From Wolbachia endosymbiont of Armadillidium arcangelii (GTDB lineage Bacteria > Pseudomonadota > Alphaproteobacteria > Rickettsiales > Anaplasmataceae), in NCBI RefSeq assembly GCF_040207875.1, contig NZ_CP157942.1, forward strand, positions 202,001 to 234,000: 32,000 nucleotides of DNA, written 5' to 3'. This document shows, piece by piece, positions 18,222-27,497 of this stretch. Position numbers and translations under genes: made by a program. Under the pieces are notes generated by a model. The model worked only from the letters and a program-made list of their open reading frames with translations. It searched no databases and was not told the DNA's origin. Positions within the stretch are counted from its first letter, which is position 1, and the number at the start of each line of letters is the position of its first letter.

Positions 18222-19886
18222 ATGGCAATTAATGATTTTGATCAGCAAAGAAGCGCAGAAGTGATTATTAATAATATGCAAAACGTTTTTTGCAAGAAGG
18301 CAAATAAGGCTACTGCCGAAGAAATTAGGCCAGTTGAAGTTGTCATACCTACGCCTAACCAATTCTGTAACAAAGCTAAGGAATGTGAGACTGAAAAAGA
18401 TCGGTGCGAACAAAACAAGCAAACGTGCGAGCAAGATAAGCAGAAGTGCGACCAGGATAAGCAAATATGCGAGCAAGATAAGCAGAAGTGCGATCAGGAC
18501 AAGCAGAAGTGCGACCAGGATAAGCAAATATGCGAGCAAGATAAGCAGAAGTGTGATCAGGATAAGCTAACATGCGAGCAGGACAAGCAGAAGTGCGATC
18601 AGGATAAGCAAGTATGCGAGCAAGATAAGCAGAAGTGCGATCAGGATAAGCAAATATGCGAGCAAGACAAGCAGAAGTGTGATCAAGACAAGCAGAAGTG
18701 CGACCAGGATAAGCAAACGTGCGAGCAAGACAAGCAGAAGTGCGATCAGGATAAGCAAATATGCGAGCAAGATAAGCAGAAGTGCGATCAGGATAAGCAA
18801 ATATGCGAGCAAGATAAGCAGAAGTGTGATCAGGATAAGCTAACATGCGAGCAAGATAAGCAGAAGTGTGATCAGGATAAGCTAACATGCGAGCAAGATA
18901 AGCAGAAGTGTGATCAGGATAAGCAGAAGTGCGATCAGGATAAGCAAACGTGCGAGCAAGATAAACAGAAGTGCGAAGATCGAGCTAAAAGCTGTCAAAA
19001 CGAGAAGGATAAGTGTGATATAGAAAACAATCAGCTAATAAGGGATATAGAACGTTGTAGAACAATAAAAGAAAGACTTGATAAAGAAGCTCTGGAGCTC
19101 AAAAGCAAGATAGAGTGCTTTAAAGCTGTAAAGGAAGGGTGTGATAAAGAGAAGCAGCAACTCAACAGCAAAATATATGATCTTGAAGATGAAAAGCTAA
19201 AACTTGGTAGAGACTTAGAACGAAATAAAAAAGAAAAAGAGGAATGTGACAAAGAGACTCTTAAGCTTGAAGGCAAGATAAAATGCTATAGAGCTGAAAA
19301 AGAAGGATGTGATGAAGAAAAGCAGCAACTCAGAGACAAAATACGTGATCTTGAAGGTGAGAAGCATAAGCTTGATACAAAAATTATTGAACTCAAAAGA
19401 GATATAGAACGGTGTAAAGATGAAAAATGTGAAGTAAAAAAAGAATATTGCACTAAGACAGAAGAAATCGAAAGCAATCTTAAAATGACTTTTGAATCAG
19501 AAAAAAGTAAAGAAATAGATTGTGAATATCTTAATAAGCTAAGAGATGATCTGGTAGTAAAATCAATTAAAACTGGTGAAAAAGCTGGCAGTGCAAATAT
19601 ATCATACTGGTATTTTGAAGATGATAAATTATATTACGGTAAGCAAGGTACTATAACAAGTCCATATGAATTAGAAAAAGACAGCATTTACTTAAAGGTG
19701 CTGACTAGTAATGAGCAAAAACCGTACTATCAATTAGGTATCTGCGACAAAGGTGGTAGCTTAGTTACAAAGCTTGATTTGTCTACAGATGATATAGATA
19801 TAAGCATATGTAACATGGTAGGTGGAGAGAGGATCACTGCCATTAAGTTAAGGGAAAGTGATGGACTGTATTGTAAAATCAGGTAA
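18222..19886 (+). CDS. Cysteine-heptad repeat / coiled-coil protein; the 3' end is replaced by IS4 sequence
   Basis: 27 near-identical C-[DE]-Q-D-K-[QL]-x heptads, then 3 degenerate heptads, a diverged 2 x 56-aa K/E-rich duplication (aa 287-398), and a non-repetitive C-terminal domain. The last 16 codons and the stop (from 19834) lie inside the IS4 terminal repeat. Confidence 0.75.
   Translation: MAINDFDQQRSAEVIINNMQNVFCKKANKATAEEIRPVEVVIPTPNQFCNKAKECETEKDRCEQNKQTCEQDKQKCDQDKQICEQDKQKCDQDKQKCDQDKQICEQDKQKCDQDKLTCEQDKQKCDQDKQVCEQDKQKCDQDKQICEQDKQKCDQDKQKCDQDKQTCEQDKQKCDQDKQICEQDKQKCDQDKQICEQDKQKCDQDKLTCEQDKQKCDQDKLTCEQDKQKCDQDKQKCDQDKQTCEQDKQKCEDRAKSCQNEKDKCDIENNQLIRDIERCRTIKERLDKEALELKSKIECFKAVKEGCDKEKQQLNSKIYDLEDEKLKLGRDLERNKKEKEECDKETLKLEGKIKCYRAEKEGCDEEKQQLRDKIRDLEGEKHKLDTKIIELKRDIERCKDEKCEVKKEYCTKTEEIESNLKMTFESEKSKEIDCEYLNKLRDDLVVKSIKTGEKAGSANISYWYFEDDKLYYGKQGTITSPYELEKDSIYLKVLTSNEQKPYYQLGICDKGGSLVTKLDLSTDDIDISICNMVGGERITAIKLRESDGLYCKIR
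18405..18971 (+). repeat. 21-bp coding minisatellite, 27 units (tgcga[gc]ca[ag]ga[tc]aagca[ga]a[ac]g-type)
   Basis: Directly visible periodicity. Codons 62-250 of the 554-aa ORF. All overlapping ORFs in other frames or on the other strand show the same 7-aa period. Confidence 0.95.
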
Positions 19887-25920: not shown

Positions 25921-27497
25921 GCACTGCCATTAAGTTAAGGGAAAGAGAAGTTAAGATTGGACAAAAAATTTGAAGCGATTGATAATTATGGTAAATACTA
26001 GGGTGAATTTTTAAGAAAAGGGAGTCTGAAAAGTGCAAGTTATTTAAAAAAGTAATAATTGCAGGTTATTTTGCAAAGAATGTACTAATGCAATGATACT
26101 GAAAAGATATCTTGAATTTAAAACACATGTTTTCTAGCTCTTTTCTGGTAGTTGAGTGAACGAATATCAGATATCTTATGACGATCAACTCTTCTCCCTT
26201 TTCTTACCACTAAAGTGTTCATCAAAAATAACTGTGATAGTCGATCCATAATGCAGTCTATGTCTGACTCTGTAGAAAAAATATCAAAGGCTAAGTTTTT
26301 AATCGCATTAAATGAGACAGATTTATTGATGCTTTTTTTTAGTTTACTATTCTGTGCGCTCAATGTCTCTTCATCATCTTCTATCATGATACTTTCTAGA
26401 TTACTGATGAAGATAGTTGACCAAAAATCCTGCTTGATAGTTTCAATACTTTTTCCTGTGAAATTCTCTAAATTTAATCTTCCCTTCAGCCTAGAAAAAA
26501 ATGTTTCTACTCCCCAGCGCAAGTAATATAATCTCTCAAACTCTTCGACTGTAAAACTTTGCTCATCTAACAGAGATGTTACTAACACTTCAACTTCTCC
26601 AGAAGAAAGTATTATTTTGACTAACCTGAATTTCATCTCATCAGGTAATCCTAGCTTTCGTAGCTGTCTTGCTACTTTAATAGGTGCGGTAGACACTACC
26701 ACCATACTAGATGGGCTTTCCGGCTTAAACATAGCGTTTATTTCATTGAAAGACGAACTTGGACAGCGAATTATATAATTGATTTTCCTTCCTGTAAGCT
26801 CAGCAAGAAATCGATAAGATACGTATCCTCTATCACAGATTAACAAATCGTCTGATTTTATGGATTCAAGCATACCGATCGCTAAATCAACCTCATAGCT
26901 GTCACCTCTACTTAGCACAGATTTTATTGCAATATTATTTAGCACATCGTAGCAAACTTCAAAGGTTGCACTTGTATAGTCTTCAAATCTCTGGATTCCA
27001 TTCCATACTGCTCTTGAGCCAAACTCGCCTATTATTTTGTCGCTCTTTGGCAGAATCAGTATTGAAGCATCAAATGCAAGTACTCTGAAGCCATGGTGGG
27101 TTTTAAATTCCTGATCTTGGTAGTATAGGGAAACTATATCATCATTTAACTCTGAAAACGCAGTATGCTTTAGCTTCTTTCTTGCTTGAGTAAATGCACT
27201 TGCCGTAATTGTGTAATCTTTTCTTGTATGCAGAACAAACTCATTAAGCATTACTTGTAATGACTTTACACTCTTTCTAAAAATCAGGAGAAATACATTA
27301 ATGAAGGGCAGCTTTCTTTTTCGTGAGAAGTCTTTTGAGGATGCTCTGTGTGCGTTTATAAAGTTTAAACTCATCAATTTATTTTTTATAAACATGATTA
27401 TTCTTTTTTTTACTCATGTCATTACTTCTTTTAATTTGTGGATCTTACCTGATTTTACAATACAGTCCATCACTTTCCCTTAACTTAATGGCAGTGA
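25921..27497 (-). mobile_element. IS4-family insertion sequence, copy 2 (1,577 bp, intact transposase)
   Basis: Position x in copy 1 maps to 47331-x here. Terminal repeats (g/t)cactgccattaagttaagggaaag. Inverted relative to copy 1. Confidence 0.9.
26118..27395 (-). CDS. IS4-family DDE transposase (425 aa, intact)
   Basis: Uninterrupted ORF. LLICDRGYVSY (the second D of the DDE triad) and YYLRWGVETFFSRLK (YREK signature). Confidence 0.92.
   Translation of the reverse strand: MFIKNKLMSLNFINAHRASSKDFSRKRKLPFINVFLLIFRKSVKSLQVMLNEFVLHTRKDYTITASAFTQARKKLKHTAFSELNDDIVSLYYQDQEFKTHHGFRVLAFDASILILPKSDKIIGEFGSRAVWNGIQRFEDYTSATFEVCYDVLNNIAIKSVLSRGDSYEVDLAIGMLESIKSDDLLICDRGYVSYRFLAELTGRKINYIIRCPSSSFNEINAMFKPESPSSMVVVSTAPIKVARQLRKLGLPDEMKFRLVKIILSSGEVEVLVTSLLDEQSFTVEEFERLYYLRWGVETFFSRLKGRLNLENFTGKSIETIKQDFWSTIFISNLESIMIEDDEETLSAQNSKLKKSINKSVSFNAIKNLAFDIFSTESDIDCIMDRLSQLFLMNTLVVRKGRRVDRHKISDIRSLNYQKRARKHVF

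Follow-up and report, generated by a model that had tools for sequence, protein, structure and literature searches.

The window analysed here comprises 32,000 nucleotides, and proteins identical to those it encodes are found on a single contig of 1,711,820 bp from the Wolbachia endosymbiont of the isopod Armadillidium arcangelii. Two insertion sequences of the ISWpi18 family (IS4) lie in it in inverted orientation, a left copy on the forward strand (19834-21409) and a right copy on the reverse strand (25922-27497), and enclose 4,512 nt in which no housekeeping gene is present. The order of the interior genes follows one contiguous plasmid arc: HP1, two RelBE operons, a gene for a DnaB_C helicase, an extragenic palindrome (EP), two further RelBE operons, and the start of a large cargo gene. 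All but one of the ten interior genes are intact. The preliminary description of this DNA had recognized the family and the inverted orientation of the IS pair as well as the lack of housekeeping genes; its arms of 1,577 bp are corrected here to 1,576 bp, and its interior of 21411-25920 to 21410-25921. The left neighbours of the segment are accD, fpg, pdxH, comEC, and rluD, and on the right it is followed by virB2 paralogues, yihY, and an SDR gene.

The inverted repeat formed by the two arms, 1,576 nt each, is far beyond chance. The copies are not identical but differ at three positions (20899/26432, 21310/26021, and 21355/25976; 99.8% identity). One of the differences is a nonsense mutation, CAG to TAG at 20899-20901, so that the left transposase is broken into products of 321 and 89 aa (ORFs 19936-20901 and 20944-21213), whereas the 425-aa transposase of the right copy (26118-27395) is intact. 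The transposase scores 199 bits against the NCBIfam model transpos_IS4_1 (cut-off 115), and NCBI labels the identical protein as 'IS4-like element ISWpi18 family transposase'. The 24-bp terminal inverted repeats, of the sequence CACTGCCATTAAGTTAAGGGAAAG in the left copy, are preserved, both outer ones included. Each arm constitutes a chimeric junction, with plasmid DNA on one side and non-plasmid chromosomal DNA on the other, and no target-site duplication is found either around the whole unit or around either single IS. The outer flanks are unrelated, ...GAGAGAGGA(T) on the left and CACTGGCAT... on the right, and the unit is not bordered by a direct repeat. When the four IS junctions were compared in direct and inverted combinations, they fitted neither simple insertion nor composite transposition, IS-IS inversion, or intramolecular transposition.

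Both interior ends lie inside a plasmid gene, and the break coincides exactly with the IS terminus. On the left, a frame on the reverse strand (21410-22177) carries an in-frame TGA, derived from TGG at 21899-21901, and has lost about 86 C-terminal codons to the IS; this gene, initially described only as an unknown one broken by a TGA and by the IS, is HP1, a core gene of Wolbachia plasmids, here a pseudogene, with 88.7% amino acid identity to HP1 of the plasmid from wCon and 71% to that of pWALBA1. As to its function, nothing matching HP1 was found in Pfam, NCBIfam, PHROG, or PADLOC; among 1.84 billion representative proteins a profile search retrieved 11 hits, all of them from the Wolbachia family of HP1 itself, and a profile search of the PDB gave no credible match. 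Its AlphaFold model is poor (pLDDT 58.9, pTM 0.40), and a Foldseek comparison of this model with the PDB found nothing below E=0.6. On the right, the large cargo gene, which in wCon encodes 838 aa, is cut by the other IS and reduced to its first 23 codons (25852-25921, forward strand).

Inverted IS4-family arms are the classic layout of composite transposons such as Tn5 and Tn10, in which two such copies surround the cargo; in Tn5, one of the two transposases of IS50L and IS50R is defective and the other is intact, as in the arms described here. The segment could thus be read as an active transposon of this type, whose outer IS ends and right transposase mobilize a cargo of helicase and toxin-antitoxin genes. 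Two IS copies with intact outer 24-bp repeats and at least one complete transposase, the right one of 425 aa, are indeed present, and the arms are mutually closest (99.8%, compared with 98.9% for the copy in the Wolbachia chromosome L026). Moreover, the right IS meets the plasmid sequence at the same nucleotide as an IS of this family in two other Wolbachia chromosomes, L025 and L026. In L026, however, the IS is reversed and the sequence on its far side is different. Unlike in Tn5 and Tn10, a target-site duplication is lacking, nothing indicates that the unit ever moved, and the ends of the cargo are truncated genes; the mid-frame cuts at both inner IS ends are better explained by insertion or deletion in situ than by the capture of a functional cargo. 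With the left transposase broken by a nonsense mutation, and with the complete unit occurring only once among the loci examined, an active composite transposon is very unlikely, and the mobile unit of this kind envisaged earlier finds no support.

The four cassettes of the RelB/RelE type noted previously were corroborated by matches of all four toxins above the cut-off for Pfam PF05016 (ParE_toxin/RelE), RelE1 being also above that for TIGR02385 (RelE_StbE), and by matches of the antitoxins, below cut-off, to RHH_5, RelB-like, or DUF6290 models. All four pairs are intact, with a small antitoxin gene ahead of each toxin gene and either adjoining or overlapping it, and sigma-70-like promoter sequences occur at equivalent positions, with 11 of 12 matching nucleotides in three operons and 10 of 12 in the remaining one. 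Cassette 1 (22347-22937, forward strand) consists of RelB1 (22409-22648) and RelE1 (22638-22937) downstream of the promoter-like site TTGAAA-17-TATAAT (22356-22384), and occupies the place of genes of 67/69 and 357/358 aa in the wCon plasmid and pWCP. Cassette 2 (22970-23539, forward strand; promoter-like site 22976-23004) comprises RelB2 (23029-23250), with 100% amino acid identity to RelB of pWCP and wCon, and RelE2 (23231-23539). It is convergent with the helicase gene, and, as in pWCP, RelE overlaps the helicase stop codon by 4 nt. Cassettes 3 and 4 are located on the reverse strand, the former (24605-25190) with RelE3 (24605-24889), RelB3 (24897-25133, ATG start), and a promoter-like site at 25190-25162, and the latter (25251-25787) with RelE4 (25251-25553, ATG start), RelB4 (25516-25725), and a promoter-like site at 25778-25750; each of these four proteins is 100% identical to its counterpart in the wCon plasmid. 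RelE toxins cleave mRNA on the ribosome, while the labile RelB neutralizes RelE and represses the promoter. Judging by their family membership, the four operons may serve as addiction modules.

The helicase gene (23536-24405, reverse strand) is intact and encodes 289 aa aligning to residues of about 147-430 of DnaB. In agreement with the description of a DnaB helicase reduced to its C-terminal domain, DnaB_C (PF03796; 2e-80) is the sole domain match, and the N-terminal domain PF00772 is missing. The protein obtained 293 bits over positions 147-427 of TIGR00665, below the cut-off of 385 for a replicative DnaB equivalog. The Walker A, DYLQL, and RESGSIEQDAD motifs are conserved, and the dN/dS ratio of DnaB_C relative to wCon is 0.07, a value that covers the whole plasmid lineage and not the chromosomal copy itself. 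A PADLOC search for defence systems gave only weak P-loop matches for this protein.

Directly upstream of the helicase gene lies the EP, a non-coding, strongly palindromic element of 203 bp (24386-24588) that accounts for the palindrome-rich centre seen before and corresponds to the extragenic palindrome of about 209 bp already described at the same place in pWCP, with which it shares 94% identity. Its outer inverted arms of 31 bp (24386-24416 and 24558-24588) are perfect and co-vary; they embed the ribosome-binding site and the start codon of the helicase gene, the first seven codons of which are included in the left arm. The centre is a perfect, AT-only palindrome of 36 bp (24468-24503). The role of an invertible switch is without support, since in all ten independent copies of the EP the centre faces the same way with respect to the helicase-side arm. 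A known RNA was likewise rejected: in Rfam only microRNA-precursor families were matched, and these at 41-49 bits where the gathering scores are 140-230, which is a generic effect of long hairpins. A scan of viral contigs gave no match to the EP, and neither an iteron-like tandem array nor a compositional anomaly was found in the segment.

A search of the interior against the 72,556 plasmid records of PLSDB returned only pWALBA1 and pWALBA2, and in a phage collection only RelBE and generic helicase matches were obtained. The segment is colinear with pWALBA1 (78.8% nucleotide identity in HP1, 79.7% in DnaB_C and the EP, 87.9% in the region upstream of the large gene) and, at 82-93%, with pWCP, represented by a Logan contig of 9,274 bp with a 30-bp terminal overlap. 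pWCP is a 9.2-kb plasmid of the Wolbachia wPip (Reveillaud et al. 2019; PMC6401122). The comparison bears out the earlier statement that pWCP carries a DnaB-like helicase and RelBE loci, and the gene order RelBE > DnaB_C < RelEB ... HP1 is shared. In contrast to circular pWCP, the segment is chromosomal and is devoid of ParA-like and ParG-like genes, of the VNTR region near parA, and of the other pWCP genes; its helicase gene is intact whereas that of pWCP is split by IS110, its RelBE operons number four, against two in pWCP, its HP1 is a pseudogene, and it is flanked by ISWpi18 (IS4), with no involvement of ISWpi12 (IS110).

The closest relative found is the plasmid of wCon, also from a Wolbachia of a terrestrial isopod (Cylisticus convexus; contig QPIP01000031), which was circularized by Martinez et al. 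2022 (PMC9560607), who reported a depth of 4-10x for their circular plasmids. Colinearity with this contig extends over HP1 (88.6%), the second RelBE operon (95.7%), and the part from DnaB_C through the IS junction (96.3%), and in both elements the helicase gene is preceded by the same two RelBE operons in tandem. The wCon element, however, is extrachromosomal, measures about 22 kb, contains ParA, ParG, a portal gene, and other phage-like genes, and has an IS256 between the helicase gene and RelE. Over 24298-25922 just 4 of 1,625 positions distinguish the segment from the circular wCon plasmid (99.75% identity), while the rest of the interior is 82-96% identical to the plasmid family. A sharp mosaic boundary lies at about 24297, the stretch of 23498-24297, with the body of the helicase gene, being about 89% identical to wCon.

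Such a boundary could be taken as a trace of a living wCon-type plasmid in the same cell that undergoes gene conversion with the chromosomal copy, whose helicase or antitoxins would act in trans. The intactness of the helicase and toxin-antitoxin genes is in keeping with this, and the plasmid-like stretch is much closer to wCon than the chromosomes are at comEC, where the wCon chromosome and the window show 90% amino acid identity, a measure of the background divergence taken from one gene only. Nevertheless, exact matches of the RelB4 protein were found in the wCon contig only, and the mosaic could stem from an old recombination between plasmids preceding the integration; such coupling to a resident plasmid is therefore considered improbable.

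In a tblastn search with 27 plasmid proteins, including ParA and ParG of both wCon and pWALBA1, no ParA, ParG, or cargo genes were found in the 32-kb window, and plasmid-protein matches were confined to 21401-25923, except for a remnant of IS256. The left flank (12000-19833) shows no similarity to plasmids, and its sole phage match is an ankyrin repeat; a larger island was accordingly rejected. Of the features that mark an autonomous plasmid of this family, the RelB/RelE addiction module is present; the ParA-like and ParG-like partition genes and an intact HP1 are lacking. In the related genomes CP156069 and CP156070 neither the IS nor the island is present beside virB2, but the left side is rearranged, so that they do not offer a clean empty site.

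As the chromosomal position, the copy number, and the orientation of the segment are those given by the assembly, a fragment of a co-resident plasmid threaded into the chromosome through a multicopy IS has to be weighed as well. ISWpi18 is multicopy in the genome of the A. arcangelii Wolbachia, a 1.6-kb stretch of the interior matches a real plasmid almost perfectly, and there is a precedent in the assembly graph of wCon, in which a multicopy transposase linked plasmid and chromosome ambiguously (PMC9560607). Such an artefact is nonetheless highly improbable. The three differences between the IS copies indicate that the assembly resolved each of them individually and did not collapse them, and both chromosomal flanks adjoin the same (transposase-5') IS end, so that the path cannot be reduced to one chromosomal IS with a plasmid detour. 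Moreover, the nonsense codon in HP1, the truncation of the arc at both ends, and the absence of ParA and ParG are unlike a living plasmid, and the source is a single 1.71-Mb contig.

Plasmid-like chromosomal islands that are degraded and flanked by transposable elements were reported in about 20% of Wolbachia assemblies, those related to pWALBA1 comprising the Dozen island of wTei/wYak/wSan and others in wStri, wLug, and wOegib (PMC9560607); further plasmid-derived islands were seen here in L025, L026, and L028. The segment shares with the pWALBA1-like islands its plasmid origin, the chromosomal location, the flanking transposable elements, and genes truncated by transposases or premature stops: it displays plasmid similarity and gene order (79-99.75% nucleotide identity) at a site that is chromosomal by assembly, with ISWpi18 at both ends, a broken HP1, and a cut large gene. 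While the Dozen island retains the variable, phage-like part of the plasmid, only the maintenance backbone is retained here. The sister strain wVulC bears no plasmid-like mark in Table S4 of Martinez et al. 2022 (PMC9560607), the host lineage being unflagged there, and no trace of the segment genes was detected in the protein clusters of this near-identical strain. The segment is thus an addition to a published class of plasmid-like islands and not a new type of element.

Taken together, the segment is very probably what is left, in the chromosome, of the maintenance backbone typical of the plasmid family that includes pWCP, pWALBA1, and the wCon plasmid, and is best read as a non-autonomous, IS-trimmed fragment of an integrated plasmid. 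Recombination between copies of ISWpi18, a multicopy element, would have brought the plasmid DNA into the chromosome, where it would then have been trimmed; this would account for both ISs joining plasmid to unrelated chromosome without target-site duplications. Against a simple pathway of this kind, the right IS touches the plasmid sequence with the end opposite to that of the IS copies in L025 and L026, an arrangement that homologous recombination alone cannot generate. On its own the fragment would be able neither to replicate nor to partition, and its inverted arms would permit inversion, which is possible through arms of such identity, but no excision. Its retention is probably due to the toxin-antitoxin operons: as RelE is toxic and RelB labile, the loss of any of the four intact, separately promoted operons would be harmful to the cell, provided that they act as their family membership suggests. 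The intact helicase gene and the EP may be passive passengers or may have kept some residual activity. The search against plasmids, colinearity with pWCP (82-93%) and with the wCon plasmid (88-99.75%) included, upholds the initial view that the segment is related to a small pWCP-like Wolbachia replicon and is integrated or decaying, although the word 'decaying' may understate its recency and activity, considering the nine intact genes and the 1.6 kb nearly identical to a living plasmid.

A more speculative reading, which we regard as rather doubtful, holds that the capture is very recent, perhaps ongoing, and that the RelBE-helicase-EP core is a modular cassette repeatedly targeted by ISWpi18, with the palindrome as a hot spot. 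The points behind it are the identity of the right 1.6 kb, the divergence at comEC, the sole gene compared, and the lack of the segment genes in wVulC. If it were true, plasmids would be moving between isopod Wolbachia now, ISWpi18 would carry the cassette into chromosomes, and the EP would be the element on which the function of the cassette centres, as an origin or as a switch of helicase expression.

That part of the segment is nearly identical to the wCon plasmid suggests that plasmids pass between the Wolbachia of isopods, some of which are feminizing strains. Wolbachia underlies mosquito-control programmes; to our knowledge it is not transformable, and the best prospect of genetic tools for it lies in its plasmids. 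The parts kept together in this segment are the helicase gene, the EP, and the stacked RelBE operons, the partition genes being absent, and each additional island helps to delimit the backbone components of the plasmid that move and are retained jointly.

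The segment at 21410–25921, enclosed by two inverted copies of an ISWpi18-type IS4 element, fits an integrated fragment of a plasmid of the wCon/pWCP type, bounded and trimmed by insertion sequences. Leftmost is HP1, a core gene of Wolbachia plasmids named by Martinez et al. for a 'hypothetical protein' of pWALBA1, a plasmid of wAlbA (PMC9560607). It occupies 21410–22177 (minus strand) in a single frame, with 71% aa identity to residues 35–296 of the pWALBA1 protein and 88.7% to HP1 of the wCon plasmid; one in-frame TGA stands where relatives have Trp, and the left IS has taken the place of the final ~86 codons. 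RelB/RelE (RelBE) operons 1 and 2 (22409–22937 and 23029–23539) lie on the plus strand and operons 3 and 4 (24605–25133 and 25251–25725) on the minus strand, all four toxins passing the Pfam ParE_toxin/RelE cut-off. The helicase gene between them (23536–24405, minus strand, 289 aa) has the C-terminal domain of DnaB as its only match (Pfam, 2e-80); its product aligns with Geobacillus DnaB over residues 162–430, keeps the Walker A, DYLQL and RESGSIEQDAD motifs and, lacking the N-terminal domain, scores under the TIGR00665 cut-off. At the right end, a stub (25852–25921, plus strand) consists of the first 23 codons of a large gene that the right IS has truncated; its wCon plasmid counterpart encodes 838 aa.

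Among 72,556 plasmid records, pWALBA1 and pWALBA2 of Wolbachia wAlbA are the only matches of the interior, and its matches to phages are limited to WO RelBE genes and generic helicases. In pWALBA1, to which the window aligns at 79–88%, the gene order is HP1, Rpn nuclease, DnaB_C, RelE, RelB, then cargo. The helicase closest to that of the island from another host (93% aa) is carried by the 22,141-bp plasmid contig QPIP01000031 of Wolbachia wCon from the isopod Cylisticus convexus (the wCon plasmid), which was circularised by Martinez et al., whose circular plasmids were at 4–10x depth (PMC9560607). Its backbone, pieced together from two halves (loci L003 and L027), reads HP1, two small genes, RelBE, an IS256, DnaB_C, an extragenic palindrome (EP), RelBE, RelBE and the large gene; identity to the window is 88.6% over HP1, 95.7% over RelBE2 and 96.3% over the stretch that starts at the helicase and ends at the IS junction. 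The wPip plasmid pWCP, recovered as a Logan contig of 9,274 bp whose ends overlap by 30 bp, is colinear with the window at 82–93%, and in both a convergent RelE has a 4-nt overlap with the stop codon of the helicase gene; the preliminary description was right to ascribe a DnaB-like helicase and RelBE loci to pWCP.

The likeness to the wCon plasmid is uneven. In a 100-bp sliding comparison 23498–24297 is ~89% identical, and 24298–25922 has 4 differences over 1,625 positions (99.75%); cassettes 3 and 4, numbered from the left, encode proteins identical to those of the wCon plasmid, and the helicases are separated by a dS of 0.45 with a dN/dS of 0.07. The island RelB2 is identical to the RelB of pWCP. 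With comEC, the sole chromosomal gene compared (90% aa identity between the window and wCon), as background, this suggests that the 1.6-kb stretch may be far closer to wCon than the chromosomes are. That the segment still exchanges sequence with a co-resident plasmid is a reading of this near-identity to which we give a low probability.

The four RelBE pairs of the plasmid fragment are divergent paralogues (RelB 35–56%, RelE 33–47% identity) with an ~80-bp promoter/5' region in common (repeat families D6, I2 and I3). Promoter-like sites are found at equivalent positions, TTGAAA-17-TATAAT in three cassettes and TTGAAA-17-TATACT in the fourth; only this positional consistency counts, since in total the region has no more such sites than shuffled sequences do. 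Stacked RelBE cassettes are usual in this plasmid family, there being three on the wCon plasmid, two on pWCP and three in tandem in the OZ034730 island. Where the window has cassette 1, the wCon plasmid and pWCP have two small genes; close relatives of cassette 1 are present on other plasmid-like contigs.

The EP of the island (24386–24588) folds as single-stranded DNA at −58.5 kcal/mol, against −20.4 ± 3.2 for shuffled sequences (z = −12). Of its perfect 31-bp outer arms (24386–24416 and 24558–24588), the left holds the Shine-Dalgarno region of the helicase gene together with its first seven codons, and the right the same RBS/start stretch in the opposite direction, followed by a short ORF; the centre is a perfect 36-bp AT-only palindrome. 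Its homologue in pWCP (94%) is the 209-bp 'extragenic palindrome' reported by Reveillaud et al. with a role called unclear (PMC6401122). The EP is kept, in constant orientation, in pWALBA1, pWALBA2, the wCon plasmid, three chromosomal islands and two metagenome contigs (arm homologues in the comparison loci L001, L002, L003, L025, L026, L028, L029, L031 and L032), and pWALBA2 has retained it together with nine helicase codons although a RuvB-like gene replaced its helicase. Across 11 sequences 97% of the cells of the outer arms pair, as opposed to only 37–54% in slid registers; five pairs are changed on both sides, and the observed covariation score was reached by none of 500 shuffles. Pairing and covariation thus indicate that the symmetry is maintained, either through selection or through arm-to-arm conversion. 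The EP may be an origin, a protein-binding site, or a structure that sequesters the helicase RBS when transcription reads through from the upstream RelBE operon. In the literature covered we found neither the co-variation of the arms nor the way they overlap the helicase start; the two represent a modest addition.

The inverted repeat around the segment has arms of 1,576 nt each (19834–21409 and 25922–27497) and a spacer of 4,512 nt. The arms show 3 differences in a base-by-base comparison, similarity stops sharply at both ends of each, and each is bordered by 24-bp terminal inverted repeats (CACTGCCATTAAGTTAAGGGAAAG) and carries a single transposase gene. The preliminary description of an inverted IS4 pair was therefore correct, its length being off by one base and the copies not being identical. 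The right copy encodes an intact 425-aa transposase (NCBIfam transpos_IS4_1, 199 bits; cut-off 115), a sequence identical to which bears the NCBI name 'IS4-like element ISWpi18 family transposase'; a CAG to TAG change at 20899 splits the ORF of the left copy into 321 and 89 aa. No direct repeats were found flanking the left IS, the right IS or the whole pair, and that the island is a mobile composite transposon, with these copies as its arms, has a low probability.

The left IS joins the gene of a 554-aa repeat protein, whose frame enters the IS by 53 nt, to the middle of HP1; across the right IS, codon 24 of the large plasmid gene faces unrelated chromosomal DNA. As each connects a plasmid gene with non-plasmid sequence, both are plasmid/chromosome chimeras, which is the outcome to be expected if IS copies recombined and IS-adjacent DNA was then deleted. 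In this genome ISWpi18 is a multicopy element. An assembly artefact is likewise given a low probability. ISWpi18 adjoins the identical plasmid nucleotide (...GGTATGCCAGCCG, then the IS) in the chromosomal islands of GCA_947179555 (L025) and OX366390 (L026), via the IS end other than that in the window. The shared contact lies at 25909–25921 of the window, 9066–9078 of L026 and 9071–9083 of L025, the wCon target being at 8485–8500 of L003. This intact target is a near-palindrome, GCCAGCCGCTGGC, and the right outer flank of the island (27498–27506, CACTGGCAT) contains CTGGCA and resembles the wCon target and the IS terminus. On these sequences the simplest reading of the shared nucleotide would be a target preference of ISWpi18, with independent insertions in both orientations, and the contact point may be a target-site hot spot.

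Ordinary chromosomal genes stand on both sides of the integrated fragment: carboxyltransferase, fpg, pdxH, comEC and rluD on the left, and two virB2 paralogues, yihY/BrkB and an SDR gene on the right. The related complete genomes CP156069 and CP156070 match 27668–32000 at 99.4% and 97.7%, respectively, and have neither IS nor island beside virB2; they give no clean empty site because their left side is rearranged, with window 11256–13852 inverted there. Synteny also breaks just left of virB2 in more distant Wolbachia. In the sister strain wVulC comEC is virtually identical to that of the window; wVulC is not in the 90% clusters of the island helicase, RelB1, RelE1 or RelB4, and carries no plasmid-like flag in the S4 table of Martinez et al. 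(PMC9560607). This absence of evidence hints that the island was gained in the A. arcangelii lineage or lost in wVulC.

Several other features of the window are worth mentioning. Outside Armadillidium strains, comEC (3525–5789, plus strand) has its best matches in supergroup A Wolbachia and wCon (~90% aa; ~83% in typical supergroup B), and may be a recombinant gene. Three short adjacent ORFs with 99-nt repeats at 10053–11241 (families D3, D4, D7 and D10) have the appearance of a fragmented ankyrin-repeat gene, with a weak match to WO-phage ankyrin genes nearby at ~12.7 kb. A degraded IS256-family element with a frameshifted transposase (11256–12477) is 77% identical to the IS256 between helicase and RelE of the wCon plasmid; in CP156069 the inverted stretch homologous to 11256–13852 sits 5.6 kb from virB2. 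A 914-aa leucine-rich-repeat protein is encoded at 14532–17276 (minus strand) with a 72-nt repeat array at 16524–17099; CP156069 and CP156070 carry just a 246-aa LRR gene, which adjoins virB2. The 554-aa ORF (18222–19886, plus strand), with no Pfam match, consists for the most part of a 21-nt tandem array (7 aa, C[ED]QDKQ[KTI]; repeats at 18295–19092) followed by a coiled-coil-like Lys/Glu-rich region, and its true C-terminus is lost, as the 3' end runs into the left IS. Synteny with all relatives examined begins at 27668–27880, just left of the virB2/TrbC pilin paralogues, which lie in tandem (27784–28110 and 28226–28573, minus strand) and have repeats D5 and D11 in common. On both strands, a palindrome with 54-bp arms at 30313–30486 has a match to Rfam WsnRNA46 (Wolbachia sRNA 46) that scores 65.1 bits, the gathering score being 65.3; short palindromic motifs related to it are also present at 27583–27667 and in relatives.

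With 27 proteins from the wCon plasmid, pWALBA1 and pWCP as queries, a tblastn search of the 32-kb window returned HP1, RelBE, the 24-residue stub and an IS256 remnant (11.3–12.4 kb), and no ParA-like, ParG-like, portal or other cargo genes. Nor does 21410–25921 contain a tandem array resembling the VNTR of pWCP, for which the authors describing that plasmid proposed the role of an iteron origin (PMC6401122). With no ParA-like or ParG-like match, and with a TGA and an IS truncation in HP1, the segment is therefore without partition functions and its HP1 is broken; as the inverted repeats, moreover, offer no excision route, the fragment is not autonomous.

Plasmid-like regions were reported in 47 of 189 Wolbachia assemblies by Martinez et al. 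in 2022, among them chromosomal islands 'flanked by transposable elements' in which genes were truncated and had premature stops (PMC9560607). The island is a further member of this group, its particulars being an isopod strain previously unflagged, a backbone only, four toxin–antitoxin operons and near-identity to the wCon plasmid over 1.6 kb. RelBE modules were proposed by the same authors to slow the loss of plasmid-like islands (PMC9560607), and the present fragment is probably stabilised by its four addiction operons.
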